Below, piece after piece: positions 7,676 through 49,309 of a stretch of 64,000 bases of DNA (positions are counted from its first letter, which is position 1; each line of letters begins with the position of its first letter). The translations under genes were made by a program, and so were the position numbers. Origin of the DNA: a virus. Where the stretch lies: the UHGV virus genome UHGV-1383976. One strand, written 5' to 3'. Below the pieces are notes generated by a model. That model was not told where the DNA came from. It searched no databases and worked only from the letters and a program-made list of their open reading frames with translations.

Positions 7676-7704
7676 TTGATTTTTCAAAAAAATGATGATA
7701 TAAT
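7676..7704 (+). promoter_or_regulatory. family-A phage promoter (TTGATT-N17-TATAAT)
   Basis: member of a 15-copy conserved promoter family. Confidence 0.55.
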
Positions 7705-7735
7705 AAATATATAAAATGAGAAAGGAGATATGTCA

Positions 7736-9088
7736 ATGGTCAAAGTAGGATTGCGTTTTCTTGATAAAAATAATGACATTGGTAATAAAACATATTGGTA
7801 TATTGTAAAAGATAAAAAGGTTTGGGCAGACTTAAACAAAGCTGCAATGGTAAGCATTTCGACTCAAAATTCAACAGCATTTAAAATCACAAACGAGACT
7901 GGATATGGATATAGAGATGCTTGGGTTGTTTGGGTTGATATTGATACAGTAAAAGAGGGTGATGATAAAGAACTTGTTGTCATAAGCGAAATTAGAGGAT
8001 ATGATGACACAAGACCCAGAAAGAAGGTTTCTTTTCCTGTTTGGGGGATTTGTGGAATAAATAGGCCTGAGTGTTATGATAGTTATTTTTCCGAGCCTAT
8101 ATCGTATAACTTTGATGCTGGTTTGGATCTCACTGTAAACAATGGCGCATTTTATCTTAATACTTCTGACGGTTATAAGCCGCTCAAGGTTTCGTTTGAT
8201 GGTTCAATGTCTAATATGACGAACACTTGTGAGTCAGAGAATTCTAAACTTCAATCTCTTTTCGGTAGCTCTGAAAATATTACTCATACATTAACTGATA
8301 CTCTCACTACGTCTAATTTTGAAGACTTGAAAAATTTGATTTATGAAAAAAATTCATCTATAATAAATACACAAAATAAAAAGGAGAAAAATGAAATGAA
8401 TATGAAAATTTTTGACACTCAGTTCGGCAAAGTTGATGATGTAGCAATGTCTATCTATGGCGCGACTTTCAAGACCGTAGGTACTGATGGCCTTGCGCGC
8501 TCTATCGCATATGACCCTAATACTCAGGAGTATATCGACGTCCCCAATGAGATGATTATCGCAAAAGGCTCTTATTGTTATGCCATGCCTTGCACTGCCG
8601 ATAATCTTCATATTGGTGAGTATATTCGTCATAATGGAGCATGGGCACGTGTAATTGATGTTGATGATGCTGCGCGACTTGTAATTGAAAAGATATCGAC
8701 TCGTGAGGTAGCGACTATTCTGCCTGTACGTTCTATGTTTGGCTATTCTTTCTATACTAAGCTCATTACTCCATTCCAGAGTGGCTTTACGACTGCTGAT
8801 GCGGCTCATCCTTTTGGCGATATGCTTCCCTTCCTTATGATGGACGATGAAAAGATGGATGATATGCTTCCTCTTATATTGATGATGGGTCAGAACGGTG
8901 CGGCGCAGTTTGATATGTCAAATCCTATGATGCTTATGATGCTTATGAATGAAAAAGATGGCAAGGATTCTGATGTATTCAAAATGATGGCAATGATGTC
9001 TATGTTCAATCAGGCAAAGCCTGTTGTTAAGACCGATGCCCGCCACTGTGAGTGTGATTGTTGCGACACTGAAAGGAAGTCTTACTAA
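7736..9088 (+). CDS. hypothetical protein with Met-rich and Cys-cluster C-terminus
   Basis: ORF; C-terminus MMLMMLMN...MMAMMSMF...CECDCCD. Confidence 0.5.
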   Translation: MVKVGLRFLDKNNDIGNKTYWYIVKDKKVWADLNKAAMVSISTQNSTAFKITNETGYGYRDAWVVWVDIDTVKEGDDKELVVISEIRGYDDTRPRKKVSFPVWGICGINRPECYDSYFSEPISYNFDAGLDLTVNNGAFYLNTSDGYKPLKVSFDGSMSNMTNTCESENSKLQSLFGSSENITHTLTDTLTTSNFEDLKNLIYEKNSSIINTQNKKEKNEMNMKIFDTQFGKVDDVAMSIYGATFKTVGTDGLARSIAYDPNTQEYIDVPNEMIIAKGSYCYAMPCTADNLHIGEYIRHNGAWARVIDVDDAARLVIEKISTREVATILPVRSMFGYSFYTKLITPFQSGFTTADAAHPFGDMLPFLMMDDEKMDDMLPLILMMGQNGAAQFDMSNPMMLMMLMNEKDGKDSDVFKMMAMMSMFNQAKPVVKTDARHCECDCCDTERKSY

Positions 9089-9543
9089 TGGATAGTCGTA
9101 TTCAGTATTCGGTTGATTATGAAAATGGGGTTGTGCTGGCTTGGTTCAACCCCGACGAGATAATGAGCGACCTTATTGAGGAAACTATACATCTTGCTGA
9201 TAAGATGCAGAATTCAACTTTGCGTTGGGGCGTTGTGTTTGAGCAGTTTGAAAAGTTTAGAAAGCAGAATAAGACTGCTCTTGGCAATCTGTGCGGTAAG
9301 GCAAAGTGTAATATGGATGCGGGAGACAAGTTCGACGTTAAGATAGGTGAAGAGCTTGCCAAACGCCGTTTGCTTATAAAGGTAGCAAGCCTTCGCTCTC
9401 GTTGGTTTTGGAAGCTTGAGTTTATGGTGATGGATGATATGTTTCGTTTTATCGATCGGCAGTGTCATCATCAGAAGATCGCTTGTGATTATGATGAAGA
9501 ACTTATAAACTATGCCCCGTTTGGCAGTCAATCTTTACATTGA
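9088..9543 (+). CDS. hypothetical protein
   Basis: ORF start is coupled to the upstream stop. Confidence 0.45.
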   Translation: MDSRIQYSVDYENGVVLAWFNPDEIMSDLIEETIHLADKMQNSTLRWGVVFEQFEKFRKQNKTALGNLCGKAKCNMDAGDKFDVKIGEELAKRRLLIKVASLRSRWFWKLEFMVMDDMFRFIDRQCHHQKIACDYDEELINYAPFGSQSLH

Positions 9544-9552
9544 ATTGAAATT

Positions 9553-10110
9553 TTGAAAGGGGCGAGTGCTACGCGAATTGCAAAGAATTTAGATAACTAT
9601 GACTATACAAATCGGCTCAAAACCCGCAATCTTGATAATACTGATATGCTCGATTTCAACTGCGGTGGAGCCGCGCTAATGACGTTTGACGGATTTGTTC
9701 CTGACCATGAGCGTGATTCATATGAAGAAGGTATAGATGAAGATATCGAGGCCGGACTTGCGTCTTGGGAAATTATTGATAGGCTTCTTTGGCGTGATGT
9801 TGATGAGATGCTTCATCTATTTGCAGGACGTCTTCGATTGGCTGATGCGGGAGAACAACCACGAGAAAATGAACGTCTTATTGCGTATCGGGTAGCACTT
9901 TCTTATGAAAAAGATGGCGATACAGGCGCACCGTTTGATACCGACTTTCATTTCAAATATATGGATAGTGATGGGCAGTGGTATGAGAAAAGAGGGTTTT
10001 TCAATCCTATTGAGAAGTGCGATCTTTCTGCCGATTCAATTTGGGAATGTGGGCCTTTTTGCCCGCCTTATACATCAGATATTGTGTTTATGATGCTTAC
10101 GAAAATTTGA
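9553..10110 (+). CDS. hypothetical protein
   Basis: ORF; TTG start, weak RBS. Confidence 0.35.
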   Translation: MKGASATRIAKNLDNYDYTNRLKTRNLDNTDMLDFNCGGAALMTFDGFVPDHERDSYEEGIDEDIEAGLASWEIIDRLLWRDVDEMLHLFAGRLRLADAGEQPRENERLIAYRVALSYEKDGDTGAPFDTDFHFKYMDSDGQWYEKRGFFNPIEKCDLSADSIWECGPFCPPYTSDIVFMMLTKI

Positions 10111-10135
10111 TTTTCTTTCAGATTTTTTATATAAT
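10107..10135 (+). promoter_or_regulatory. family-A promoter
   Basis: TTGATT-17-TATAATATATATAGAAAG. Confidence 0.6.
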
Positions 10136-10168
10136 ATATATAGAAAGTTGAGAGAGAGGAGCTTGAAA

Positions 10169-10462: not shown

Positions 10463-10740
10463 AAACTTGGTTTATGTATCGAGAGAATCCAGACGGGAAA
10501 TTTACAATAGTTCCTATTTATAAAAACTTTGGTGAAGATTGGAAAATAATGGGATCTTGGGCGGTGCTTCCCGCACGGCTGTTTGGATTGAGTTGGGCCG
10601 ACTATTTACGTTATTGTAGGCAGTGTGGCGCCGATGTGCGAGGTAAGACGCATCAGTATCCCATTATTGCGTGGAATGAAAAGAATAATGAATTTTTAAA
10701 TGAATTGAATAAACGCGCGAATCAGTTAATTAAAATTTGA
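10459..10740 (+). CDS. hypothetical protein
   Basis: RBS ggaaggag then ATG. Confidence 0.5.
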   Translation: MKTWFMYRENPDGKFTIVPIYKNFGEDWKIMGSWAVLPARLFGLSWADYLRYCRQCGADVRGKTHQYPIIAWNEKNNEFLNELNKRANQLIKI

Positions 10741-10765
10741 TTTTTCTAAAAAATTTGTATATAAT
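10737..10765 (+). promoter_or_regulatory. family-A promoter
   Basis: TTGATT-17-TATAAT. Confidence 0.6.
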
Positions 10766-10785
10766 ATATATACAAAATAAGAAAT

Positions 10786-10871
10786 GCGGGTGTGTCGGAA
10801 TGGGTAGACGATATGGACTTAAAATCCATTGGCGGGATGCTGTACGGGTTCGAGTCCCGTCACCCGTACCA
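10786..10871 (+). tRNA. tRNA-Leu(TAA), type II
   Basis: manual fold: anticodon arm atgga-cttaaaa-tccat; T-arm acggg-ttcgagt-cccgt; long variable arm; CCA encoded. Confidence 0.7.
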
Positions 10872-15322: not shown

Positions 15323-16099
15323 TTGCGTGGTAAAAAGGTTTTATGTAATTGTAATGATGGTTTGACAAGTGAGTTCTTAAATTATTTTGTCAATAATTTT
15401 GATTGTCTTGAACTTGATGAACTTGTTTGTTTGACTTATAATAAAGATGGAAAGGCATATAAGTATACCAAGCGTCCTAAAGTTGACCTTATGGTTGAAC
15501 CACTCATCGGTTCTGGTGCATTTGATTCACAGGAAGGCCGAGATGCTCTTGCCGCTTGTGATATTGTTATAACAAATCCTCCCTTTAGTCAATTTCGAGA
15601 TTTTGTCAATTTGATTTTGTCTTACAAAAAAGATTTTTTGATAATTGGCAGTAAAAATGCTATTACCTACAAAGAATTTTTTCCACTTTTAATGAGTGGT
15701 AAAGTTCATATTGGCAATTTCAATGTTTCTACTTTTAAACAGCCAGATGGTACTGATAAAAAATTTGGTAATATCGGTTGGTTTACGACTCTTTCTGTTG
15801 TAAAAGCGGCACAACCAATTCCTTTAACAGCAACCTATGATCCGCAAAATTATCCTACTTATGATAACTTCCGTGCAATTGAAGTAAGTCGCACAGCTAA
15901 TATTCCTAAGGACTATGATGGCGTAATGGGGGTTCCTATTTCATTTCTGGACAAATTTTGTCCTACTCAATTTAAAATTGTTGGATGGAGTCGTCATAAT
16001 GACGAAGGAATGGATGGCGGATACTGGACGGGTGGTTGTGCTGATGCTACTATAAATGGTAAGCAAGTTTATCGCAGAATTTTGATTCAGAAAATTTGA
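15323..16099 (+). CDS. Dam-like N6-adenine MTase paralog (start uncertain)
   Basis: IVITNPPFSQ motif; the homologous DEFYTQ motif lies upstream (15269–15286) in frame, right after the TAG. Confidence 0.5.
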   Translation: MRGKKVLCNCNDGLTSEFLNYFVNNFDCLELDELVCLTYNKDGKAYKYTKRPKVDLMVEPLIGSGAFDSQEGRDALAACDIVITNPPFSQFRDFVNLILSYKKDFLIIGSKNAITYKEFFPLLMSGKVHIGNFNVSTFKQPDGTDKKFGNIGWFTTLSVVKAAQPIPLTATYDPQNYPTYDNFRAIEVSRTANIPKDYDGVMGVPISFLDKFCPTQFKIVGWSRHNDEGMDGGYWTGGCADATINGKQVYRRILIQKI

Positions 16100-16124
16100 T
16101 TTTTATTAAAATTTTCGATATAAT
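16096..16124 (+). promoter_or_regulatory. family-A promoter
   Basis: TTGATT-17-TATAATATATATAGAAAG. Confidence 0.6.
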
Positions 16125-16339
16125 ATATATAGAAAGTTGAGAGAGAAACTTCCAGAGGTTGCGAATTAGCTATTCAATACAAAATCTCTCAAAATGATAA
16201 GGTTTTCGGTGTTTTACTTATCGGTTTTCTATGCAAAATGGTTCTAACAAGCCAGCGTGCGCGCGAGTAAAAGTTGTTAATAAGCGGTTGGCATACGTGA
16301 TAAGCCGTTGCCCCAGCGAGAAGATTTAATAAATCTTCT

Positions 16340-16699
16340 TTGTTGGTGGTGTTTAATAAAAATGCGTCAGTAGCAACCCAGTGGTATGATTTGATTATAG
16401 AAAAAGATGATAAATTTGAAACAGTACAATGTAAGTGTACTGGTTCTCAGAACAACGTCATTAGTCTAAAGTCTTGTGGCGGTACAAAAGGTGAAGCTTA
16501 TGACAATGTTCTTAATCATTCTGGGCTTGATAAATTATTTTGCGTGGATATAAATGGTAATATGTACGTGATCCCGATGTCAGAGGTTGTGGCATCTGGA
16601 AATACTAAGCAAATTACTTTACGTACTGAACCCACAGCAAATAATCAAGGTTTTCAAACTCATAAATTTCGAGTTCAATTCTCGTTTCAAGCGTCGTAA
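16340..16699 (+). CDS. hypothetical protein
   Basis: ORF with TTG/GTG starts only. Confidence 0.3.
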   Translation: MLVVFNKNASVATQWYDLIIEKDDKFETVQCKCTGSQNNVISLKSCGGTKGEAYDNVLNHSGLDKLFCVDINGNMYVIPMSEVVASGNTKQITLRTEPTANNQGFQTHKFRVQFSFQAS

Positions 16700-16995: not shown

Positions 16996-17029
16996 ATAAT
17001 TTCATTTTTCAAATTTCCTTTCTTAAAAT

Positions 17030-17059
17030 TTGACTTTTTCAAAAAATCTTGATATAATA
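17030..17059 (+). promoter_or_regulatory. family-A promoter driving the noncoding region
   Basis: TTGACT-18-TATAAT; downstream transcript is ORF-free. Confidence 0.55.
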
Positions 17060-17079
17060 TATACATAAGATAAAGAAAA

Positions 17080-17805
17080 GAAAAAGTCAAAAGGAGGACA
17101 ATGCTAGTGCCACCTACACGTGGTGTCCTCTGTTTTCGCTAAGAGCGCTGGCATATATCCAATTAAATAATACTAACTCAGTGAAGACGGAATTCGATGT
17201 TCCGGCTGAGAAATTCCAGCTAGCACAGCAGAAACGAAACAAGGATACTTGTGGATACTGGACTGAGAGGCCATCGAGAGATGAGCCGAAGTAGAGCGGT
17301 CGCTCAAGTGGGAAGAAGAGCAGGAATTGTGCTGAGTGAATCGCAAGCAAACGCAGCCGTGGAGTGGCGAGCGCAATAGACAGCTTGGTGAATAGCCAAG
17401 CCGAACCCAAGTTAGGTCTTAGTTGGTGCCTGTGGCAATCCTTGGGAAAACCAATAAGCTCGTTCCGTTGAGACGACAGGGAATGTGAAATCTGTCTTTG
17501 ACACTCTACAGCATCCGAGTAGCGGAACACAACGGGGACTTATAGAAAAGATGGTCAGTAATAATAGAAATTGCTATTTTATCTTTCTGAACATCCCGTG
17601 AAAGGTAGAGGTAATCAACCCTCTGGCGGATTAGGCGACATTAGACACTTGGGCTATCCAAGAGTAACAAGTCAATGTTGTTGCTGGGGTAAGAAGTGTA
17701 TGGGCGACGGCCTGTATGCTCAGACTTATCTCCCGCGTGGCAGAATATGCTTGAAGGTTTATCGAGGTAGGGCGAAGGCCCAGTAATATTTAGTTGGATT
17801 TATAT
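17080..17805 (+). ncRNA. candidate large structured ncRNA (~700 nt, GC-rich, ORF-free)
   Basis: no credible ORF on either strand; GC content clearly above flanks; promoter upstream; tRNAs on both sides. Confidence 0.45.
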
Positions 17806-35265: not shown

Positions 35266-35267
35266 TA

Positions 35268-35302: not shown

Positions 35303-35311
35303 GAATGAAAT

Positions 35312-35340: not shown

Positions 35341-35372
35341 ATATATAGAAAATGAGAAAAGGAGCTAATGAA

Positions 35373-36349: not shown

Positions 36350-36358
36350 GAAGATGAA

Positions 36359-37564: not shown

Positions 37565-37569
37565 AAAAT

Positions 37570-37598
37570 TTGATTTTTTATAAAAATTAAGCTATAAT
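37570..37598 (+). promoter_or_regulatory. family-A promoter
   Basis: TTGATT-17-TATAAT. Confidence 0.6.
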
Positions 37599-37629
37599 AT
37601 ATATAGAAAATGAAAGTGAGGGAAAGAAA

Positions 37630-37974: not shown

Positions 37975-37988
37975 AGGAGGTATATCTA

Positions 37989-38231
37989 ATGAGTAAAAGT
38001 CCAGCACTTGTGCATCAAATATTACGCGACTGGCGCGAGGAAAGTAAAAGTCCTCCTTTTTCATATAGTTTTAATTGGGCAAAAGGTCAGATCGATATTT
38101 ACACAGCGCGGCCCGGCCTTTTGATTGGCAAGGGTGGTTCATTGGCTGAGAAGTATATTGGAAAAATGAAAGCCGCATACCCTTCTTTTAATATTCGACT
38201 TCATGAACTTGAATTGCATTATGTTAAATAA
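37989..38231 (+). CDS. hypothetical protein
   Basis: RBS aaggagg. Confidence 0.4.
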   Translation: MSKSPALVHQILRDWREESKSPPFSYSFNWAKGQIDIYTARPGLLIGKGGSLAEKYIGKMKAAYPSFNIRLHELELHYVK

Positions 38232-38246
38232 GAAAGGAGTATATCA

Positions 38247-39083
38247 ATGATAAATCCGCAGGAATATGTAAATAAGGCATATCAGCTTGGCGAAAAGGTT
38301 TATGGTAATCGTCTTATATTCGCCGCACATTACGGCTCTTTCAATTATGGCCTTGCCGATGAGGAAAGCGATTGTGATGTCGCTCTTATTGTAATGCCAT
38401 CAATGGAGGAAATTGTAAGGTGTGAAAGCTCCAACACTCCATTGAAGCACGTTCCTGAAGGCGACATTGATGTAATTGATGTTCGCACTTTTGTTAGACG
38501 ATTGGCTAACGCTGAGCTTAATTCTCTTCAGTATCTTTATGCGCCTTATCACAAGTGGAATGAATATTGGAATGATACTTTCGCGTCTCTTCACGGCAAG
38601 TTTCTTTGGGATATTGCTATGATAAATCCGTATGAACTTTTCTATAATATGCGGGGTGTAATAGCCCGCGCAAGTAAGCGAATGGATAATGTTAGTGAGA
38701 AAAATCCCTTTAGTCCATCTTGCTCTAAAGCTATTTATAATGCAATGCGAATGATCGACCTTGCGAACGCATTCGCTGATGATATTGAGGAAAATGGTCT
38801 TGGCACTTATAACGACATCAATATATTTTCTTGGGAGTATGGTGTTCATAGTAGGAAGGACTTGATGGCAATGAAACGCGGTTTATATTCATACACAACC
38901 GCCCGCGATTGTATTGATTCGTGTATGAAAGAAATTGATAAGTTCCATGATATATTTATCAATGAGGACAATGAAACCATAGCTTTGGATAATCGTGCGG
39001 TACAGCGTCTTGAGCGAATGATTGAAGGCGCTCTCATTAAACTTTACTTCAATGAAGCGGCTACACCAAAATTTTGGTCATAA
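38247..39083 (+). CDS. Pol-beta-superfamily nucleotidyltransferase
   Basis: GSFNYGLADEESDCDV (GS...DxD). Confidence 0.6.
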   Translation: MINPQEYVNKAYQLGEKVYGNRLIFAAHYGSFNYGLADEESDCDVALIVMPSMEEIVRCESSNTPLKHVPEGDIDVIDVRTFVRRLANAELNSLQYLYAPYHKWNEYWNDTFASLHGKFLWDIAMINPYELFYNMRGVIARASKRMDNVSEKNPFSPSCSKAIYNAMRMIDLANAFADDIEENGLGTYNDINIFSWEYGVHSRKDLMAMKRGLYSYTTARDCIDSCMKEIDKFHDIFINEDNETIALDNRAVQRLERMIEGALIKLYFNEAATPKFWS

Positions 39084-39087
39084 AAAT

Positions 39088-39116
39088 TTGATTTTTTCTC
39101 GAATTTTCGATATAAT
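39088..39116 (+). promoter_or_regulatory. family-A promoter
   Basis: TTGATT-17-TATAAT. Confidence 0.6.
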
Positions 39117-39143
39117 ATATATAGAAAGTGAGAGAGAAATATG

Positions 39144-39221
39144 GGCCGGATAACTCAGATGGTAGAGAACCAGTGCGGTTAGGCGCTGGAGGAGGCGGTG
39201 GTTCGAATCCACCTCGGCCCA
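39144..39221 (+). tRNA. atypical tRNA-like (7-bp anticodon stem, 6-nt loop GGTTAG)
   Basis: perfect acceptor ggccgga/tcggccc and T-arm ggtgg-ttcgaat-ccacc; non-canonical anticodon arm. Confidence 0.4.
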
Positions 39222-39224
39222 ATT

Positions 39225-40073
39225 AGATATGAAGGCGACATACAGTTATTATAGTCGCCGGACGTACTGCTCCGTCCATTACGAACAGAGCAGCCCCGCA
39301 AAACGAGGGTGAGAGTTGAGTTTGTTGGTTTTACTTGAAACCGCCGTCGGGGTAAGTGGCGTTACATCTTACCAAAAAAATCCGTCTGACTGCAGTAAGG
39401 GCGGTTGGTTTGTAGGTTTGCCAATAGGTATAAGTCTAGATACCAATAAAATACTTACCAAAGAGGAGTAATATGGCTGAAGTCCTCCAGCGTGGTTGAT
39501 ATGTTGAAATGCCTAGGCCACGCACATATGTCAGTTTAGTTTAACGAGGGAAAACAACGCCCGTCAAGGCGTAATTTCGGGTTCGAGTCCCGAAACTGTC
39601 CTTGGTTTGACAGGCCAAGAAATTTGTCAGGTGCGGCCCTTTGTCGCCGGTCGAGACTCCGTCCGGAAATGAGCTACGTCTAAGTAAGAAGCGTGAACTT
39701 AGCGCTGATGTGCGTGATGCATCGGTTGCGTGTCCAAAACACGACAGGTTTGGTTGAGTTTTCTACACAAAATTCAATTGGGTCAGGCCGCCCACAGGAT
39801 GGCCGCGGGTTCCACTCCCCGAACGAAAAACAATCGGGAAATCTCTTGTTTTTCTCAATTTTGTTAGTAGTTAGTCGCATTGATGAAATTGCTTTTTGGA
39901 GTAAAGTTGTGAGTAGCTAAAGAAATGACAATTCTTTTTCTACTCAAAAAGCCAAGTATCCGCCTCTGCTTGGACATCCGCGCGAGGTTGCGTGTTGATG
40001 AAAAGCGTGGAAGGCAGTTATATAATGGGGACTGCCGCATAGTTGGTTTAGGAGAGTTGCCAGCTACGGAAAT
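39225..40073 (+). ncRNA. candidate large structured ncRNA (~850 nt, GC-rich, ORF-free, with tRNA-like modules)
   Basis: no ORFs; embedded T-arm-like cgggttcgagtcccg; same transcription unit as the flanking tRNAs. Confidence 0.45.
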
Positions 40074-40150
40074 GGCGCATTGGACGAACTGGTAGAGTCA
40101 CCACCCTTTCAAGGTGGAACTTAGGGGTTCAAGCCCCCTATGCGTCACCA
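40074..40150 (+). tRNA. tRNA-Glu(TTC)
   Basis: anticodon ccacc-ctttcaa-ggtgg; T-arm agggg-ttcaagc-cccct; CCA. Confidence 0.65.
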
Positions 40151-40176
40151 ATAATTTTCATTTTTATATTCCCTTT

Positions 40177-40210
40177 TCTTAGAGTCCCGCGTAGATTAGC
40201 TACGCGGGAT
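40177..40210 (+). terminator. rho-independent terminator
   Basis: cccgcgtagattagctacgcggg followed by a T-run. Confidence 0.6.
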
Positions 40211-40239
40211 TTGATTTTTTAAGAATTTTTATTATAATA
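40211..40239 (+). promoter_or_regulatory. family-A promoter
   Basis: TTGATT-17-TATAAT. Confidence 0.6.
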
Positions 40240-40272
40240 TATATAGAAAGTGAAAAGAAAGGAATTTTAAAA

Positions 40273-40569
40273 ATGATAAAAGCAATTATTCTTGATGATG
40301 GTTATCATTCCAACGATGTGGTAATAAAGTTTGGGGAAAATTATAAGAGTGTTTCTCTTGTATATTTTTTGAATCTGCTCTGTAAGCGTCATGACTCTGA
40401 TTATGAAGTAAAAACCATTCATTTTGAGGATATTGGGGATGATGCCGTGGCGGAATGGTTTGAAATTCTAAATAATATGAGCTATTGTTCGTCTACTGTT
40501 CAGTCTTGCGAGGAGTTTGAGAAGCTTTGGGAGTCTGACGAGGTTGTAGATGGAATAGATGTGTATTGA
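40273..40569 (+). CDS. hypothetical acidic protein
   Basis: ORF. Confidence 0.45.
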   Translation: MIKAIILDDGYHSNDVVIKFGENYKSVSLVYFLNLLCKRHDSDYEVKTIHFEDIGDDAVAEWFEILNNMSYCSSTVQSCEEFEKLWESDEVVDGIDVY

Positions 40570-40584
40570 GAAAGGAGAACTCCA

Positions 40585-40902
40585 ATGAATCTTTGGGTTG
40601 ATGATATTAGAACTCCGCCCTTTGATAGCTATGTGTGGGCACGTTCTGTAAATGAAGCCATTACCGCTATCAAATCCTATGAGAGAAATTTCACTGGCGG
40701 CGACACTATTTTTATTAGTCTCGATCATGATGCTGGCGATTTTGCGAAAGATGGCGGAGATTATATTCATATTTTAAACTGGCTTGAGCGAGAAAAAATC
40801 GTAGACACTGGATATTTTTTTCATCTTCATACTATGAATCCTGTGGGAAGAGAAAATATGGAGAGAATTATTAGAAAAAATGGATGGAGGTTAGTGAAGT
40901 AA
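40585..40902 (+). CDS. hypothetical protein
   Basis: RBS aaggagaa. Confidence 0.45.
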   Translation: MNLWVDDIRTPPFDSYVWARSVNEAITAIKSYERNFTGGDTIFISLDHDAGDFAKDGGDYIHILNWLEREKIVDTGYFFHLHTMNPVGRENMERIIRKNGWRLVK

Positions 40903-41249
40903 TGGATGCTTTGGAATTTTTTCGTGAGAGAAGACGTATGTGTGTGTCTTTTGGCAACGTTTGCTCTAGTTGTCCTGCTAATGCAGAGGGTTATTGTATA
41001 GCCTTTGATGAGGATGAGGAAGCTGTCCCTATTGTTGAAAAGTGGTCTGCTGAACACCCACGCAAAACAAGACAAAGTGAGTTTTTAAAAATATATCCTC
41101 ACGTTTTGATAAATAAAATTGATGGATTTATAGAAATATGCCCAGCAGATTTGATACCTGATTATAGGGATGATACCGGACATTGCAATAGACGTAATAT
41201 TTATTGTATAGATTGTCGCCGCGAGTTTTGGCTACAGGAGATAGAGTGA
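40884..41249 (+). CDS. Cys-rich hypothetical protein
   Basis: ORF. Confidence 0.4.
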   Translation: MEVSEVMDALEFFRERRRMCVSFGNVCSSCPANAEGYCIAFDEDEEAVPIVEKWSAEHPRKTRQSEFLKIYPHVLINKIDGFIEICPADLIPDYRDDTGHCNRRNIYCIDCRREFWLQEIE

Positions 41250-41250
41250 T

Positions 41251-41775
41251 ATGGAAACAGTAAATTGTCTTCGCTGTGATTTTCGTCATAAGGATAATGG
41301 AAACTGTACTGCTGTCTGGGGATTTTGTACCGCGGTAGCGGCTGCACACTGCCCGATGTTGCGGAAATATTTAGATACGGGATTGACCCCAGAGCAGTGT
41401 GAAAGCGCAAAGGCTATCATTAAATCTGCCTTTAGCGATGATTCATCAAAGGAAGAGCGAATTCGTGAGCTACTAAAGGCCGACAAGGACGGGCGCATAG
41501 AGGTGCTGCCGTGCAAGGATTGGCTCAACATTGTTTTTGGGGATCAAGTTTTGTTTTGGGGAATTGATAAGGACTACATGAAGAACCCAATTCGTGAGAT
41601 TTCCGTATATGGCGCTGAACGCATCGGGTGGTATGACGGCTATGAAACCGTATATTTGAAAGGAACGGACGAAAACGGAGAAGCATGGGAGTTTTATCCA
41701 GAAGACATTGGAAAGACCGTATTCCTGACCTACAAGGACGCGAAGAAAGCATTGGAGGAGATGAAGGATGATTGA
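41251..41775 (+). CDS. hypothetical protein
   Basis: ORF. Confidence 0.45.
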   Translation: METVNCLRCDFRHKDNGNCTAVWGFCTAVAAAHCPMLRKYLDTGLTPEQCESAKAIIKSAFSDDSSKEERIRELLKADKDGRIEVLPCKDWLNIVFGDQVLFWGIDKDYMKNPIREISVYGAERIGWYDGYETVYLKGTDENGEAWEFYPEDIGKTVFLTYKDAKKALEEMKDD

Positions 41776-41959
41776 ATTAATACCTTGCCCGTTCTGCGGC
41801 GGTAAGGCAGAATGGGATAAGGGCAAAGCGCCTCAGTGTTCACAGTGTAAAGCGACAATACCATCTGCTGGGGGTGTATTTCGAAAATATTTTGATAAGA
41901 ATTATAGATACCGCCAATATATGGCTGGGCTTTGGAACAGGAGGGTTGACAATGGCTGA
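41768..41959 (+). CDS. zinc-ribbon protein
   Basis: CPFCGG...CSQCK. Confidence 0.35.
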   Translation: MIELIPCPFCGGKAEWDKGKAPQCSQCKATIPSAGGVFRKYFDKNYRYRQYMAGLWNRRVDNG

Positions 41960-42161
41960 CTATATTGAACGTGAAGTTGTTAAGGGGCTACTCAATATTA
42001 ACTATGGTGGCTATCTTGATGCCGTAGATCGTATCCCTGCTGCAGACGTTGCCCGGTGGTGCATGGGCGGTGGATTACGTGGGAGGCGGCAGGTAACGAC
42101 ATACCTTCGCCACACAGACATGAATGCTCGGTCTGCCACGACGCTGCGCAGGTGCTTATAA
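41952..42161 (+). CDS. hypothetical protein
   Basis: RBS ggaggg; GC-rich. Confidence 0.3.
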   Translation: MADYIEREVVKGLLNINYGGYLDAVDRIPAADVARWCMGGGLRGRRQVTTYLRHTDMNARSATTLRRCL

Positions 42162-42418
42162 ACGGTATTGAACTGCTCTCTGATTACTGCCCTAACTGCG
42201 GTGCGAAGATGGATGGTGACGCGAAATGATATGCCTTATAGTTTTTGCCGCACTTGCTTGTGCAGTAGGGGCGACACCACCAGCAACGGCCGCTGACATG
42301 ATGGCGATAGGCGTGTAGGTGCTGTGCGACATTGAATTGCTCAAGCTGATTTTTGGGAGAAGTTAATGGTGAGAGCCTAGTATGAATTCCCGGACATTAT
42401 GAAAGAAAGGATTAAAAT

Positions 42419-42688
42419 ATGATTATTTGTGCAGCGATTAAAGATACACGAACTGGTGCGATCTTTGGAGGAATTCGTCGTGGCAGCATTTATTCTGCGA
42501 TGCATGATGCAGGCATAATCCCTCCTCATGCAGCCGCAATTGAGGGATTCCTTGATGAGAGGGGAACTTTTTATGATAGATATGAAGCATATATTGTAGC
42601 TATGAATAATGGTCAAATGAGTGCTACGACTCGTCAGCACAAATGTGATAAAGGTGAGAAAGAATTATATTCGGAGGACTTATATTGA
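42419..42688 (+). CDS. hypothetical protein
   Basis: ORF. Confidence 0.4.
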   Translation: MIICAAIKDTRTGAIFGGIRRGSIYSAMHDAGIIPPHAAAIEGFLDERGTFYDRYEAYIVAMNNGQMSATTRQHKCDKGEKELYSEDLY

Positions 42689-42724
42689 TGGCAAGGATAG
42701 ATTTATGGGACTAAAGGGGACAAA

Positions 42725-43030
42725 ATGAGTAAATGTAATTGTTATCACGAAAGATCAGAGCGTAGATATATTTTTAATACTTTTACTGGGATGCCAGAAA
42801 CCTCATATCTTAGCACATATGGAGTCTGCTATGGCACAAAAGAATGTGATGTATGTGGTTGTGAGGGTGATGAAACTAGATGCAGTTTCTATCCCGAAAA
42901 GCGCGAAAAAGCCATTCAAGCCAATATTATGGCTTTTGAGAAACCAGCTTGTATTGACTGCCCATCTAATCCTAAGAATGGTGGAAATGGAATTTGCGCC
43001 TGCATCTTAGGGCAGGATGTAATTTATTGA
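42725..43030 (+). CDS. Cys-rich hypothetical protein
   Basis: ORF. Confidence 0.4.
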   Translation: MSKCNCYHERSERRYIFNTFTGMPETSYLSTYGVCYGTKECDVCGCEGDETRCSFYPEKREKAIQANIMAFEKPACIDCPSNPKNGGNGICACILGQDVIY

Positions 43031-43039
43031 GGTAAGAAT

Positions 43040-43240
43040 ATGAAACAAACAATTGAGTTAAATGCAAAAGATATCGAGCGGCTAATTGCAAAAGAGTTTG
43101 ACGTTAAAGAAGAACAAGTAATTGTCTCGCTCAGCAAAGTATATAGTGGATATGGAATTGGCGAGAATAAGGATTATGAGATCTGTGCTCTGATAAATAT
43201 GGGTGAAAATTATGACAGGAACAATAAATTGTATATATGA
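43040..43240 (+). CDS. hypothetical protein
   Basis: ORF. Confidence 0.35.
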   Translation: MKQTIELNAKDIERLIAKEFDVKEEQVIVSLSKVYSGYGIGENKDYEICALINMGENYDRNNKLYI

Positions 43241-43522
43241 AACCCCATGTGATGGTGTTCAAAGTGGGATAAGAAGTGTGATAAAAAGACGCCAGAGCGG
43301 GGACAAAGAGTTAAGTGCCATCCTATTGATGATGCGTTTACTAATAAAATGTGTCAATCAGAATCCGACCATGAGTGGGAATGTATTGGAATATCTACAA
43401 TAGGGACGGATTATATATGTAGAAAATGTTTTGCTCGAAAAAATGTCCCATATGAATCAATATAAAACTAAGGTTCCACGCATAATAAGTTGAATTTATC
43501 AATTGACTTAGAAGCGTGGAAC

Positions 43523-43551
43523 TTGTTTTTTTATAAAAATTGAGTTATAAT
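43523..43551 (+). promoter_or_regulatory. family-A promoter (TTGTTT -35 variant)
   Basis: preceded by a terminator hairpin; -10 TATAATATATATAGAAAATG. Confidence 0.55.
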
Positions 43552-43583
43552 ATATATAGAAAATGAGAAAAGGAGAATATAAA

Positions 43584-43940
43584 ATGAGAGAAAATTTGGA
43601 ATATATGATAAGTGCAATCAATGCAGCCACGATAAGTGCGGTTGCACATAGGTCCAATGGACTGATAGATAACAATTATGACCGTGCGCAAGAAATTAAG
43701 TTTCATCTTTGGTCTGTATGCGATCGTATAAATAGAGATGAGGGTGAAATAGTAGCTTGGGTTGGATTTGTTCCTGTTTATGAGATAACCTTTTTTTCTA
43801 TGCGGGATAGTTCTTTTGGTAATACATTAATACATAATCGTTCTAAGATTTATCTTGGAGAAGTTCCTCTTATCAGATTTGATAATGACGGTATCGAGAA
43901 ACCGACGACTATTTTTAGATATAAGGGAGAACTTATGTGA
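43584..43940 (+). CDS. hypothetical protein (paralog of 44933..45268)
   Basis: shared AHRSNG...F(F)xM.D.SFGNT...LIR..NDGI motifs. Confidence 0.5.
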   Translation: MRENLEYMISAINAATISAVAHRSNGLIDNNYDRAQEIKFHLWSVCDRINRDEGEIVAWVGFVPVYEITFFSMRDSSFGNTLIHNRSKIYLGEVPLIRFDNDGIEKPTTIFRYKGELM

Positions 43941-43970
43941 ATTTTAAAGCGGAGAATGGAGGAACAATAG

Positions 43971-44495
43971 ATGGCGGCTATAAAATTTGAGATTGATGGA
44001 AAGACTTATGATTTTACTTCGGAGAATTTTTGGGAGAAGTTTGTAATTGATAGCAATGGTAATATTATTCTGAAGCCAAAGGCGGAGATAAGAAATCCTT
44101 TTGAAAGAGTCGGAGAAGATAATAAAAAAGTCTTCTATGCTATGGATTGCTATGGTGGAGTTGCAAAACTTCGAGAGGGTGTTGCATGTATCGCGCCAGC
44201 CCTTTATGAAGTAGCTAATTATTGTACTGATGATAAACTTCTTCGACGGCGCGCTCTCTACGAAAAGCTTGAACGGTGTTTGTGGCGTTTTTCTATGGAG
44301 AATGGTGGAAGCGGAGATTATTATCCTGTTTTGAATAGAGAAACTCGTGAATGGTCTATTACTTATACGGAAATTCAAAGATTTGGGCCTTCTTTTAAGA
44401 CTTATGAGGTTTGTGGGCGTGCAATAGATGAAGTAATAAAACCGACATTAGATGGAATTGCCGAAGAGGAAATCTTTTCTTGGAAAGGGATATAA
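43971..44495 (+). CDS. hypothetical protein
   Basis: ORF. Confidence 0.5.
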   Translation: MAAIKFEIDGKTYDFTSENFWEKFVIDSNGNIILKPKAEIRNPFERVGEDNKKVFYAMDCYGGVAKLREGVACIAPALYEVANYCTDDKLLRRRALYEKLERCLWRFSMENGGSGDYYPVLNRETREWSITYTEIQRFGPSFKTYEVCGRAIDEVIKPTLDGIAEEEIFSWKGI

Positions 44496-44500
44496 TCTAT

Positions 44501-44767
44501 ATGTATCATTGTGAAGTATGTAGACATCATATCAACTTAGATTTAGATGCAGTGCCTACAAGGTGTGTTGACCCTGTAGCAAAATATTGTCAGGGTTGCA
44601 AATATGGCTGGATAAAATATCCAGATTGGGTTGAAACAAGAGAAGATCTCGATGGATGTTATTTCGATTCTAGCTGTATCTATGGGTTAGAAGGCACTCA
44701 GCCTACAGAAGAAGAGCTGGAAGAGTTCTATAGATGGTGGGATGAATGGAATGAGGCACAGCTATGA
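44501..44767 (+). CDS. hypothetical Cys/His-rich protein
   Basis: ORF. Confidence 0.4.
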   Translation: MYHCEVCRHHINLDLDAVPTRCVDPVAKYCQGCKYGWIKYPDWVETREDLDGCYFDSSCIYGLEGTQPTEEELEEFYRWWDEWNEAQL

Positions 44768-44928
44768 AAGTTAGAGAGCTAATTGAAAAATTAGAATCGT
44801 ATGCTAATAAATATGGAGATGATATTCCTGTTCGTACATTTGATTTAAATAGAGATATGTGCGATATAGATGAGGTTGAATTTAATCAGGGTTATGACTT
44901 AGAATATTATATTTATTTAGGAGCTTAA
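44764..44928 (+). CDS. small hypothetical protein
   Basis: coupled ORF. Confidence 0.3.
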   Translation: MKVRELIEKLESYANKYGDDIPVRTFDLNRDMCDIDEVEFNQGYDLEYYIYLGA

Positions 44929-44932
44929 AATT

Positions 44933-45268
44933 ATGAACGAACATTTGGAAAACATTATATATTCAATTAATCACGCAGTGGCTAAAGCGGCGATTCATCG
45001 GTCGAATGGAATATGGGATATAGAAAAAACTTACCATCGTGGGATAGATATCGCATTTGACCTTCGTTCAATATGCGAAATTATCAATAAAGATGTTGGC
45101 GAAGAACTTGTGGGAATAGAGACAACAAAGGTTTATGAGGTAGAATTTTTCGATATGCACGACGATTCTTTCGGTAATACAATTCAAGGCAATAAATCTA
45201 CTATTTGTATTGGAATGCTGCCACTTATTAGATATGAGAATGATGGAATACGTGGCGCGTGGGCATAA
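44933..45268 (+). CDS. hypothetical protein (paralog of 43584..43940)
   Basis: paralogy. Confidence 0.5.
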   Translation: MNEHLENIIYSINHAVAKAAIHRSNGIWDIEKTYHRGIDIAFDLRSICEIINKDVGEELVGIETTKVYEVEFFDMHDDSFGNTIQGNKSTICIGMLPLIRYENDGIRGAWA

Positions 45269-45923: not shown

Positions 45924-45944
45924 AAGCAATAAGAACATTTAAAT

Positions 45945-45973
45945 TTGAAAATCCTCAAAATTTTTGCTATAAT
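45945..45973 (+). promoter_or_regulatory. family-A-like promoter
   Basis: TTGAAA-17-TATAAT. Confidence 0.5.
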
Positions 45974-46004
45974 TATTATAGAAAATAAGGAAAGGAAATA
46001 TAAA

Positions 46005-46993: not shown

Positions 46994-47048
46994 CTTCATA
47001 TGGTTCCCGCACAAGTAAGTCTTTTCGTAAGACAGAAAGTGCGGGAAC
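46994..47048 (+). terminator. rho-independent terminator
   Basis: ggttcccgcac...gtgcgggaac followed by a T-run. Confidence 0.6.
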
Positions 47049-47077
47049 TTGTTTTTTTATAAAAATTGAGTTATAAT
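47049..47077 (+). promoter_or_regulatory. family-A promoter (TTGTTT variant)
   Basis: -10 TATAATATATATAGAAAATG. Confidence 0.55.
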
Positions 47078-47106
47078 ATATATAGAAAATGAGGAGGGAA
47101 AATAAA

Positions 47107-47575: not shown

Positions 47576-47707
47576 GTCTGAAACAGCAATGCTGCACGAC
47601 CAGTTAGCTCAGTGGTGCGCGCTCCGTAAGAAATGCCAGAAATTCACAAACAAGAAAACTTACACGCGGAAAGAGAAACATCGTAAGCGAATTGAAGATA
47701 GCGAAGC

Positions 47708-47736
47708 TTGAAAAAATAAAAAAATCTTGATATAAT
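47708..47736 (+). promoter_or_regulatory. family-A promoter
   Basis: TTGAAA-17-TATAAT. Confidence 0.55.
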
Positions 47737-47760
47737 ATATATAGAAAGTGAGGGAAGAGA

Positions 47761-48315
47761 ATGAAACATTACAAGATTTACGGCGCGACTTGCTACAGCT
47801 TTGAAGCTCCAGTAGGCAAAGACCAGATTGTCAGAATTGAGTTTATGCCGGAGGAGGACGATACGGAGGACGTTTCGACTTTCTATATTGGACTGCTTGT
47901 TTATGATAAGCGTAAACGTAATCATGCTCTCAATCGCTGGATTGGCCTTGTCAATTTGGATGAGGATGGGTATGTGCGTGGTGATGAGTATCCAATAACT
48001 GGTAAGCATCAGCTTGAAACCTTTGCTATCGCGCGCAAGTTATTTCTTGAAGGGATTGAAGCCGTGCGGAGTGTGTATTGTTCTTCTTCTCTTACCTTTA
48101 TTGTTGAAGCAAGCGAGGAAAAGCGCGCACGAGTATATGATAGATTTTTGAGCCGTTATGGGTGGCGGGCGCATGGCGCCAATGATTACGCCGCTCAGAT
48201 TGGATGTAGTTTGAAATGGAGTAAGTATTATCTCCCCAAAGACTGGGACGAGCTTTTGGAACGTGAAAGCAGTTTTGCTAAAAAGGAGAATGAGTATGTC
48301 GAACTCGAATATTGA
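47761..48315 (+). CDS. hypothetical protein
   Basis: ORF. Confidence 0.5.
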   Translation: MKHYKIYGATCYSFEAPVGKDQIVRIEFMPEEDDTEDVSTFYIGLLVYDKRKRNHALNRWIGLVNLDEDGYVRGDEYPITGKHQLETFAIARKLFLEGIEAVRSVYCSSSLTFIVEASEEKRARVYDRFLSRYGWRAHGANDYAAQIGCSLKWSKYYLPKDWDELLERESSFAKKENEYVELEY

Positions 48316-48462
48316 TTGGTACATTAGTGTTAGTTCGCTCAAGGATGTATTGGATGAACTAGCCATTGATTACGCTATGTATGATGACGCTTTACAGGCA
48401 ATATGCGATCTTTCTGACCGGATAGACGCCATGCTTGAGTGAGATAAGATTGGAGTGGTAAG

Positions 48463-48783
48463 ATGATAAATGAGTCTGAAAGATGTTATACAGCGGCTGA
48501 AGTTGGTAATATGATTTCTACCGTTGAATATCATTATGGTGATGAGTGGGGACCGAATGGAATTACGGCACTGGAGGATATGCTAGGTATTGATCATTTT
48601 GGTGATGAAGTAGCCGAATGGGCACACACTGACCACTTGCCGCAAGGTTATATTAGTATCAGTGAATTGCTCAAAAAGATGATAGAAATTAAACAGCAAG
48701 ATTTGAATGTAAAAAACTTTGTAAAAATATTGACGACTTGGGTTCTAACAAACCAAAATAATACGGTGGTGATAATGAAATGA
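48463..48783 (+). CDS. hypothetical protein
   Basis: ORF. Confidence 0.45.
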   Translation: MINESERCYTAAEVGNMISTVEYHYGDEWGPNGITALEDMLGIDHFGDEVAEWAHTDHLPQGYISISELLKKMIEIKQQDLNVKNFVKILTTWVLTNQNNTVVIMK

Positions 48784-49238
48784 CAAAGGAAGTCCGGGAA
48801 GTCCTCGCGGAAGTCTTCGCAATCGCATCTGCATTATTGCTATTTTCTGCCCTTGCAGCTTGTCTAATACTGACAAGTTGCGGCGGGCAGCCTGAAGAAA
48901 AGAATTGGCTTGTTCAGTCGTGGGCGCAGATTCAGGGCGTTTGGGAAAGTGAATCTTACACTGACCAGAATGGTGAGATACATTCATTGGTTTATAGTGA
49001 AATGCATGAACTAATGATAAGCGGGGATTCAATTGTTTCAACTTATTGTGGCAGCTCAAACACTGGCCGCATTTGGCTATGGGCGATTGACGATGAAACA
49101 TATATTTATCACACGACTATTGGTTTGACGATTGGATTTACGGAAGACACTTTCGGCGCGACGCCTGATGGTAGGAATGTTGTATGGTATTGCCGCGCAA
49201 GTGAGTCAGAAACTGGATTCGAAATGTTTAATAAGTAA
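48780..49238 (+). CDS. lipoprotein
   Basis: signal peptide + LILTSCGG lipobox. Confidence 0.45.
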   Translation: MTKEVREVLAEVFAIASALLLFSALAACLILTSCGGQPEEKNWLVQSWAQIQGVWESESYTDQNGEIHSLVYSEMHELMISGDSIVSTYCGSSNTGRIWLWAIDDETYIYHTTIGLTIGFTEDTFGATPDGRNVVWYCRASESETGFEMFNK

Positions 49239-49279
49239 AGCGGGCCATGAATTCCAAGTAAAAATTATAAGTTGAAAAT

Positions 49280-49309
49280 TTGATTTTTCCTCAAATTTTC
49301 GCTATAATA
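49280..49309 (+). promoter_or_regulatory. family-A promoter
   Basis: TTGATT-18-TATAAT. Confidence 0.55.

Follow-up and report, generated by a model that had tools for sequence, protein, structure and literature searches.

We find that a 64,000-nucleotide (nt) stretch of the virus genome UHGV-1383976 (hereafter, the window) carries a family of strongly conserved promoter-like sequences, which are probably read by the housekeeping (sigma-A/sigma-70-type) RNA polymerase of the host. These sequences would serve genes expressed before the late genes (pre-late genes), transfer RNAs (tRNAs) and non-coding RNAs, and would be built for maximal output. Most likely, the motif lets the phage capture host RNA polymerase before its late genes switch on, a strategy that is known from T5 and has not been described for this phage group. 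The best reading, drawn by analogy, is that the family consists of very strong host-polymerase promoters resembling T5 P_N25, and in part the promoter-early stem-loops (PeSLs) of T4, within a large clade of uncultured gut and rumen phages. The window covers 64 of the 129 kb of the genome (129,281 bp), which is a contig assembled from a metagenome in ENA, and what we say below about absent gene types refers to the window.

A preliminary description of this DNA had listed 15 copies of the motif. We found all of them at the places given and all on the + strand; their starts are also correct, except that the TTG of the copy placed at 23797 begins at 23796. A weight matrix was trained on these 15 sites and used to scan the whole window on both strands, with 30 Markov shuffles as a control. 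The matrix recovers its training sites at 33-66 bits and returns 25 sites in total, 16 on the + strand and nine weaker ones on the - strand. Among the 30 shuffles, the maximum score was 7.2 bits and no promoter-like site appeared. The sixteenth + strand copy, which the earlier list lacked, lies at 8336-8382 within an open reading frame (ORF; 7730-9088), and the other 15 lie between ORFs. All 25 sites agree in orientation with the local coding strand. Furthermore, the 17-mer TATAATATATATAGAAA occurs in the window eight times exactly and 12 times when up to two mismatches are allowed, against 0.08 occurrences expected from shuffles.

Numbered from a +1 that assumes initiation 7 nt past the -10 element, the motif reads (A-tract)-TTGAtt-N17-(G)nTATAAT-ATATAT-A(+1)G(+2)AAA(A/G)TGAG and is followed by a purine run. 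All 16 + strand copies carry TTG(A) and TATAAT, with a spacer of 17 bp in 15 of them and 16 bp in one. A 17-bp spacer had been ascribed to every listed copy. It is present in 14 of the 15 (TTG 23 nt before TATAAT), the exception being the copy at 40211, whose 16-bp spacer in the window is 17 bp long in the orthologues of two relatives. Both the conserved stretch after the -10 element and the A-tract upstream, noticed earlier, are present in the copies. Outside the hexamers, the copies also agree in the A-tract (-41 to -37), in the spacer's T-run and the AAAA(T)TT behind it, in the G at -14, in ATATAT (-6 to -1) and, within the initially transcribed sequence (ITS), in AGAAA(A/G)TGAG (+1 to +10), beyond which more purines follow. 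A GAGA-rich ribosome-binding site within about 15 nt had been ascribed to every copy; it is confirmed for the protein-coding copies, where Shine-Dalgarno-like purines begin at +8 to +17. Start codons of the protein-coding copies fall at +19 to +33 (counted from the sequences). The transcripts had been called almost leaderless; they would indeed be short at the 5' end, with predicted leaders of 18-33 nt, but not leaderless. An AUG or GUG at +6 was considered as a functional start codon and rejected: it does not keep a constant frame with the main ORF, and the ACAAAATAAG and ATAAGATAAAG variants lack it.

The + strand copies are given here one per line; elsewhere, copies are mostly named by the position of their -10 element.

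7671-7722, + strand: copy 1, TTGATT-N17-TATAAT, -10 at 7699, variant discriminator AAATAT, 62 bits; predicted to drive ORF 7730/7736-9088.
8331-8382, + strand: -10 at 8359, ITS ACAAAATAAAAAGGAG and then ATG, 46 bits; in frame within ORF 7730-9088.
10102-10153, + strand: -10 at 10130, ITS AGAAAGTTGAGAGAGAGGAG, start codon at about +28, 58 bits.
10732-10783, + strand: -10 at 10760, 61 bits; tRNA-Leu (10786-10871) downstream, with a 14-nt leader.
16091-16142, + strand: -10 at 16119, 64 bits; downstream come about 210 non-coding nt that have a stem-loop at the 5' end, then an ORF, then a tRNA-Pro/Thr/Trp cluster.
17025-17076, + strand: TTGACT, TGn, -10 at 17053, ITS ATAAGATAAAGAAA, 58 bits; upstream of the ROOL RNA (17153-17800).
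23791-23842, + strand: the most divergent copy, -10 at 23819, 34 bits; at the head of the tail-gene block.
35307-35358, + strand: -10 at 35335, 62 bits; immediately follows a terminator hairpin (35271-35295).
37565-37616, + strand: -10 at 37593, start codon at +26, 66 bits.
39083-39134, + strand: -10 at 39111, 66 bits; tRNA at 39142, with a 19-nt leader.
40205-40256, + strand: -10 at 40233, 16-bp spacer; a terminator hairpin (40182-40212) overlaps the -35 element and T-run.
43518-43569, + strand: -10 at 43546, 63 bits; follows a long hairpin and differs little from the 47072 copy.
45940-45991, + strand: TTGAAA, TGn, -10 at 45968, discriminator TATTAT, 49 bits.
47044-47095, + strand: -10 at 47072, 63 bits; a 10-bp hairpin abuts the -35 element (where GGAAC meets TTGTTTTTTT), making this a predicted composite terminator-promoter.
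47703-47754, + strand: -10 at 47731, ITS AGAAAGTGAGGGAAG doubling as Shine-Dalgarno sequence, start codon at +19, 51 bits.
49275-49326, + strand: -10 at 49303, ITS GTAAGATAAAGAAAG, 60 bits; a leader of about 71 nt before the 124-residue form of gene 49386-49760.

The genes that these copies precede are mostly small genes and RNAs. The window encodes 15 tRNA genes, a ROOL RNA (RF03087; 17153-17800, 272 bits), two group I introns, tail-fibre and baseplate proteins (25139-32095), a Gp10_C baseplate domain, RtcB, an SPFH protein, a DNA ligase and numerous small proteins without assigned function. Seven of the + strand copies lie at 7.6-23.8 kb and nine at 35.3-49.3 kb, and they head clusters of small genes of unknown function, tRNAs and the ROOL RNA. 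The 11.4-kb block of tail, baseplate and endolysin genes at 23858-35265 contains no copy in the matrix scan, whereas the flanking 30 kb contain 16. We take the timing class of the promoters from gene content, namely from the absence of the motif from this structural block and from the TAG-recoded block of phage Phass-1, described below. Two copies had been said to drive RNAs. This was an undercount, as at least four do: those with their TTG at 10737 (tRNA-Leu at 10786), 16096 (~210 nt of non-coding sequence), 17030 (ROOL, 88 nt past the predicted start) and 39088 (tRNA at 39142). Among nine ROOL genes, comprising that of the window and homologues in motif-selected loci (among them L028, L062, L049, L134, L013 and L100), seven are preceded at a distance of 120-340 nt by a promoter of this family; in some cases, a tRNA separates the two. 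From this arrangement, ROOL appears to be co-transcribed with tRNAs from motif promoters.

The promoter cores change more slowly than the DNA around them. We made 14 orthologous promoter comparisons with two close relatives, which are IMG/VR contigs of 132 and 126 kb that are 91-94% identical at the nucleotide level (the relatives named below are L183 and L184). From the -35 TTG through +10, we counted ~10 changes in 630 positions (~1.6%), whereas the surroundings diverge by 6-9%. The spacer holds eight of the ten core changes (six substitutions and two 1-nt indels), and the others are one at -13 and one at +6. None of the 14 comparisons shows a change in TTGA, TATAAT, the discriminator or +1 to +5. 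As far as sequence comparison can tell, this supports purifying selection on the orthologous cores.

The extended motif, which the preliminary description had suggested looking for in relatives, proved to be widespread. Its exact 22-mer TATAATATATATAGAAARTGAG is present in more than 119 stretches of IMG/VR contigs, mostly 60-190 kb in length, and in 60 stretches of GTDB genomes, mainly metagenome-assembled genomes of Clostridia (Oscillospiraceae, Lachnospiraceae and Acutalibacteraceae). Isolates that carry it belong to Hominicoprocola, Pseudoflavonifractor, Colidextribacter, Ihubacter and Faecalibacillus. Nearly all instances have TTGA at 17-bp spacing, an A/T-tract spacer and purines downstream. 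The isolate copies that we examined precede replication-initiator-like, primase-like and D5-like regulator genes, which, judged by their sequences, look like genes of mobile-element type. Among the viral loci, 78 of 119 encode at least one homologue of a window protein, and the carriers of the motif therefore form a broad but related assemblage. When the seed 22-mers are removed, the remaining TTG-N20-TATAAT sites of the viral loci retain an alternating A/T stretch behind the -10 element, A as the start, AAA, and a peak of T at +7. Because these sites keep the start-region pattern, the motif represents the consensus of a promoter class and not a handful of copies.

The motif is also found in the gut phage Phass-1, a TAG-recoded siphovirus with a predicted Clostridia host (PMC10607447). 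A megablast of window positions 35000-45000 against INPHARED returned no phage relative, and its sole match was 40 nt at one Phass-1 promoter. The two phages have ~10 distant protein families in common, yet they share identical 30-mers. Phass-1 carries ~30 copies of TTGAC(A/T)(T/C)AAAAAAATTTTT(A/G)TGnTATAAT-ATATATAGAAA(A/G)TGAG on its - strand at 55-131 kb and two additional copies at 3.5 and 21.9 kb, but no copy on the coding strand of its TAG-recoded structural block. Among the INPHARED matches listed, the exact AGAAA(A/G)TGAG start block occurs only in Phass-1, at several places. The window and Phass-1 lineages each have their own spacer and their own final three -35 bases (TTGATTTTTT..AAAATT in the window; TTGACATAAAAAAATTTTTATG in Phass-1), whereas -12 to +10 is common to both. 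This combination fits concerted evolution of neutral positions within each genome plus a functional constraint on the start region that is common to the lineages. The motif strings TATAATATATATAG and TATAATATATAT led to no relevant paper in the searchable literature, and the Phass-1 paper is silent on promoters.

Among characterised systems, the nearest likeness is to the promoters of T5. In a BLAST search, our 63-nt consensus matched promoters of T5-like phages at 83-86% identity over ~50 nt, and the matches include an annotated promoter of Salmonella phage S114 (TTGCTTTCTGCTAAAAATTTTGATATAATATATGTATAAATTGATGAGAGGAG). T5 N25 itself has TTGctt, a 17-bp spacer and TATAAT, together with an UP element and an UP-like AT-rich spacer (PMC12464699). 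Features common to the window motif and the P_N25 class are an A/T-type UP element upstream, TTGnTT as the -35 element, 17 bp of spacer with AAAATTTT(T), the consensus TATAAT, a bubble rich in A/T, initiation at A, and an A/purine-rich ITS ending in TGAGAGAGGAG, which holds the Shine-Dalgarno sequence. It differs in its discriminator, which is strictly ATATAT here and AGATTC in T5, in its ITS (AGAAA(A/G)TGAG as against ATAAATTTGAG) and in having a far more uniform consensus, with identities of 22-30 nt across copies and phage lineages. The phages are also unrelated: T5 and its kin are Demerecviridae of Enterobacteria, whereas the carriers described here are uncultured phages probably of Clostridia. 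The 10-kb megablast contained no match to a T5-like genome, and the PHROG and Pfam content of the window is not T5-like; thus, the relation is one of analogy and not of membership. Early promoters of Lactococcus phage 949, skunaviruses and Streptococcus thermophilus phages are similar as well, with TTGAC(T)-N17-TGnTATAAT, ATATAT and an A/G-rich leader with GGAG (in phage 949, TTGACTTTTGAATGATATTATGATATAATATATATTATAAAGTTAAGGAG), but their matches to the motif are partial, at 77-90% over 30-57 nt. The early promoters of Bacillus phage SPO1 are of the same low-GC Gram-positive lytic-phage type.

Together, the -35/17-bp/-10 geometry, the co-orientation with genes, the intergenic position, the purifying selection and the annotated T5-like best match support the identification of these candidates as promoters. 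The preliminary description had left it open whether the conserved initiation region is a recognition site for a phage factor or simply optimises strong promoters. The second alternative is better supported, since each conserved block matches an RNA-polymerase determinant and T5 P_N25 has the same layout. The first gained no supporting evidence in our tests, and a Pfam summary of 93 window ORFs contains no sigma, RNA polymerase, Q-like/antiterminator or other transcription-factor family among the first 25 of 38 matched families.

How the blocks might work together can be proposed from E. coli and T5 biochemistry, on which our assignment of functions draws. Recruitment would depend on the UP-like A-tract, the TTGA -35 element, the exact 17-bp spacer with its T-run/AAAATTT, G(-14) or TG, and the consensus TATAAT. 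Positions -12 to +1 are all A/T, with the maximal number of TpA steps that TATAAT allows, and the bubble should form readily here, including on relaxed DNA just after injection. T(-1)A(+1), which is found at the modal start distance, may fix the start site, as it fits the preference for a pyrimidine at -1 and a purine at +1. G(+2) would match the position of the core recognition element (discussed in PMC5961368). Escape would be assisted by the A-rich, nearly purine-only ITS AGAAA(A/G)TGAGAGAG, which may help a tightly bound polymerase to clear the promoter fast; in the non-template strand, a purine-rich ITS favours escape and a pyrimidine-rich ITS impairs it (PMC12464699, PMC5961368). Because a near-consensus promoter is expected to be escape-limited, perfect hexamers would be accompanied by a non-G discriminator and an escape-friendly ITS; note that the Phass-1 promoter is a full TTGACA-N17-TGnTATAAT. 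At the RNA level, the purine run would supply messenger RNAs (mRNAs) with a Shine-Dalgarno sequence within leaders of 18-33 nt. In long-leader and RNA-gene transcripts, the ITS is often paired in a 5'-proximal stem-loop that may protect the 5' end.

Several points weigh against promoters optimised for the host polymerase as a full account. Both the position of +1 and the adjective 'strong' are predictions from sequence. We know of no contact between RNA polymerase and DNA that needs specific bases at +3 to +10, and a polymerase optimum does not account for the near-invariant T at +7 within an otherwise purine-only ITS. The identical 30-mers of the window and Phass-1 exceed what a generic optimum predicts, and could stem from horizontal spread or a common factor. 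G-rich discriminators are the ones that stabilise open complexes in E. coli, and the role that we give to an all-A/T discriminator is a rationalisation by analogy. One copy (8359) sits within an ORF. Phage transcription factors, moreover, were looked for in 64 of the 129 kb.

It is possible, although we are inclined to doubt it, that the block after the -10 element acts chiefly at the RNA level. AGAAAG(U)GAGG/GAAAGGAG would then serve for ribosome binding or in the manner of STAB-SD (stabilising Shine-Dalgarno) elements, or would form the 5' side of a protective stem-loop. It would protect the transcript from 5'-end-dependent decay and boost translation, and the promoter proper would end at about +2. 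The transcript start resembles AGAAAGGAGG, the extended complement of the anti-Shine-Dalgarno sequence at the 3' end of Firmicute 16S ribosomal RNA, and the leaders are minimal, at 18-33 nt. STAB-SD and 5' stem-loop stabilisers of mRNA are known from the cryIIIA, aprE and ermC leaders of Bacillus. Like them, the motif has a Shine-Dalgarno-like purine tract or hairpin close to the 5' end, a few nt away, also at places that lack a start codon downstream, such as the tRNA and non-coding RNA copies; unlike them, it is fused to a promoter and repeated genome-wide, and a stabilising role would rest on analogy. Downstream CUCUC(AC) pairs with the ITS in long-leader and RNA-gene transcripts, and the share of transcripts whose ITS pairs as a 5' arm is 69% for those with a long leader or no ORF, 51% for shuffled controls and 41% for short-leader mRNAs, but this enrichment over controls is modest. 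The start region is not just a ribosome-binding site, because copies that drive tRNAs retain it: 17 distinct tRNA-driving promoters keep A(G/C/T)AA(A/G)(A/G)T(G/A)AG, and the ITS persists in the tRNA-driving copies with leaders of 14-21 nt, although such leaders leave no room for a hairpin and the products need no translation. The ITS also resembles that of T5 N25, whose effect on escape was measured in vitro. Action at the RNA level and a polymerase optimum partly overlap and are not mutually exclusive. We consider it quite unlikely that the -6 to +10 block is a recognition site for a factor or a pause site, in which A(+3)...T(+7) of a -10-like (G/C/T)AA(A/G)(A/G)T re-captures sigma and pauses the polymerase, and at which a phage antiterminator, appropriator or repressor acts (cf. 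Q at lambda PR'), or that it is the operator of a phage DNA-binding protein. The stated form of a dedicated signal, with ATATAT-AGAAA(A/G)TGAG as an A(+3)/T(+7) sigma-A pause element or a factor site conserved across the clade, is likewise unlikely. T(+7) is the only conserved pyrimidine of the ITS and is kept in 16 of the 17 tRNA promoters; non-seed promoters have ~40% T at +7 and at most 10% at its neighbours, and A(+3) is conserved too. Positions +2 to +7 read GAAAAT, GAAAGT, CAAAAT or TAAGAT, matching TATAAT at three to four of six positions. This is reminiscent of the sigma-70 promoter-proximal pause elements of lambda PR'/Q and the lac ITS, in which a -10-like hexamer has its key A and T within the first seven transcribed bases; GTGAG is also present in the lac ITS. 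A TG near +6/+7 makes escape slower and is similar to consensus sequences of pause sites (PMC5961368), and the identical 30-mers of distantly related phages point in the same direction. However, dozens of copies per genome stand before unrelated genes, unlike the single Q-dependent late promoter with its one late operon. No conserved pause-site sequence is seen at +16 to +25 and no consistent terminator downstream, most copies running straight into a start codon or a tRNA. No Q-like gene is found among the 25 Pfam families considered above, and the commonest neighbour family carries DEDDh exonuclease motifs. We nevertheless keep the factor or pause site as a minor alternative because a polymerase optimum accounts neither for T(+7) nor for the identical 30-mers and because half of the genome lies outside the window. 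If the block were a dedicated signal, dozens of promoters could be switched on or off together, and promoter cassettes might themselves move horizontally between phage lineages.

Reading of the motif by a phage-encoded sigma factor or RNA polymerase, in place of the host holoenzyme, seems highly improbable. It is common for large phages to encode transcription machinery, and the window leaves out half of this 129-kb genome, but the motif is a textbook sigma-70/sigma-A consensus with 17-bp spacing, present in full in Phass-1; no sigma or RNA polymerase domain is among the same 25 families; and in the genomes of cultured Clostridia, the genes behind the motif are replication, primase-like and regulator genes with a mobile-element character. 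We also think it unlikely that the similarity of the copies is mostly historical. On that view, an ordinary promoter(-terminator) cassette was copied, made uniform through recombination or gene conversion, and spread from phage to phage, and the extended identity would say little about function. More than 50 nt are identical between the 43546 and 47072 copies, and L183 has a third member of their subtype; furthermore, the spacer flavour is specific to each genome, and crossovers fall within the core. Against this, flanks and spacers vary among copies, whereas the positions with known polymerase roles are fixed. Orthologous cores evolve ~4-5 times more slowly than their surroundings, and the -12 to +10 block is kept in lineages with almost no nucleotide similarity.

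Host-polymerase promoters of this kind may also shape the genome around them, with identical cores of 25-50 nt serving as recombination sites at which gene cassettes are inserted, lost and swapped. At the 35335 promoter, L184 carries an additional cassette of 1.26 kb, with a promoter copy on each side and junctions inside TATAATATATATAGAAAATGAGAAA. The upstream copy combines the ancestral upstream half with a new leader and gene, and the downstream copy a new upstream half with the ancestral leader. Read from these junctions, the arrangement shows that the cassette was inserted by a crossover within the conserved core. Behind the 39111 promoter, L184 has a tRNA-Phe in place of the window tRNA, and the 43546 copy is followed in the window by 1.3 kb of genes that L183 lacks at this place, among them a paralogue of the gene that comes next. 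Two further breakpoints between the relatives, at 40919 and 45251, lie away from promoters.

PeSLs of T4-type phages are repeated sigma-70-like early promoters that form crossover points among small genes (PMC2839356, PMC4122927). The motif resembles them in its AT-rich upstream region, in the terminator hairpin that stands just before some of its copies, in its setting among small genes of unknown function, and in the insertions, deletions and replacements that it bounds between close relatives (the L184 cassette, the tRNA swap and the 43546 locus). Unlike PeSLs, it has a convincing upstream stem-loop at only 5-6 of 16 copies: this is strong at 35335, 40233, 43546 and 47072 (z -3.3 to -5.3) and weaker at 39111 and 23819, whereas the remaining ten copies have none. 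In three of the stem-loop copies (40233, 43546 and 47072), the T-tail of the strong hairpin is the promoter's own -35 T-run. Some breakpoints lie off the promoters, and the phage lineage and host phylum are different. Crossovers within the core would extend the PeSL-type model of cassette shuffling beyond T4-like phages.

The motif offers a sequence marker of ~50 nt for pre-late transcription units in phages of 60-190 kb that are almost wholly uncultured and come from gut and rumen. It points to a sigma-A-type (Bacillota/Clostridia) host for contigs binned in Bacteroidota, Methanobrevibacter and other unlikely bins, and could thus flag mis-binned phage contigs. Seven motif-bearing contigs (L123, L130, L132, L142, L154, L155 and L162) are binned in Bacteroidota, Methanobrevibacter, Alistipes, Muribaculaceae, Saccharimonas and Melainabacteria; those in such implausible host bins are probably mis-binned phage contigs. 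The absence of the motif from the TAG-recoded coding strand of Phass-1 fits the idea that recoding marks late genes. Phage tRNA arrays and the ROOL RNA are probably expressed from the same strong promoters and often co-transcribed. As natural near-consensus promoters with an all-A/T discriminator and a purine start, these sequences provide a test case for escape compensation of very tight promoters. They are also a candidate strong and portable promoter/5' untranslated region part for genetically difficult gut Firmicutes.

Some genes and RNAs next to the promoters deserve mention in their own right. The family most often near perfect promoter copies is represented in the window by a protein of ~290 residues (54684-55610, - strand) without a Pfam domain; it has more than 3000 homologues, the best 120 of which are all at least 62% identical. 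Invariant DxE, N..FD and H....D motifs indicate, at the sequence level, a DEDDh 3'-5' exonuclease. A role as transcription factor was considered and, in view of these motifs, rejected. The gene looks like a hallmark of this phage assemblage. PDB sequence searches with two promoter-neighbouring proteins gave no match.

Gene 49386-49760, downstream of the 49303 copy, was also examined as an RNA gene. Long ORFs on both strands and an apparent lack of a Shine-Dalgarno sequence had suggested a large non-coding RNA at 49315-49834, and Rfam returned nothing for it; this candidate was ruled out by protein-level conservation in tblastn (30-40% identity, with paralogues). Gene callers start the gene at an internal ATG after GAGGAGG, giving a 124-residue protein and a leader at 49315-49385 (~71 nt). 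The protein has no match in Pfam, PHROG or PDB. Its family has several paralogues per genome, occurs in at least 21 motif-selected loci, and usually stands directly after a perfect promoter copy. The family's leader is long, A-rich or hairpin-forming, with a conserved GGCG...CCGAC-GAGGAGG segment.

The non-coding stretch at 16131-16345, behind the 16119 copy, ends in a hairpin and T-run (GAAGATTTAATAAATCTTCTTTGTT), and its 5' UUGAGAGAG pairs with a CUCUCAA that lies 40 nt further downstream. This stretch is a possible small RNA, with no match in Rfam and no homologue among the motif-selected loci. ORF 7730-9088 (452 residues, no database match) contains a complete nested promoter, a Shine-Dalgarno sequence and an ATG in frame at 8331-8400. 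This is either the own promoter of a nested C-terminal isoform of ~230 residues or a sign of two genes without an intervening stop codon. The tRNA-like genes at 39142-39222 and 39530-39601 have irregular anticodon loops, and ARAGORN reports them as 'tRNA-???' with gtta and tc. The group I introns (20207-20482 and 33075-33424; 67 and 71 bits) interrupt + strand genes. GIY-YIG, LAGLIDADG and NUMOD3 domains, which are of homing-endonuclease type, appear in the Pfam summary, the GIY-YIG domain being that of ORF 2532-3344 (- strand).

The nine - strand sites score 14-45 bits and all lie within the - strand gene blocks 1-7600 and 52800-64000, with -10 elements at 41, 892, 7118, 54200, 54572, 56459, 58133, 61370 and 61682. 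The following represent a second flavour of the motif.

7095-7146, - strand: TTGAAA-N17-TGCTATACT ATATATAGTAAA, 33 bits; diverges from copy 1.
54549-54600, - strand: TTGACT-N17-TGTTATAAT..CAGAAATTATGAA, 45 bits.
56436-56487, - strand: TTGACT-N17-TGCTATACT..ACAAAATAAGAA, 43 bits.
61659-61710, - strand: TTGACA-N17-TGATATAAT..CAGAAATTGAGAG, 32 bits.

In these - strand blocks, the consensus is TTGAC(T/A)-N17-TGnTATA(A/C)T, with a less alternating discriminator and an ITS of ACAAAATAAGAA. This second flavour may be a separate regulatory class.

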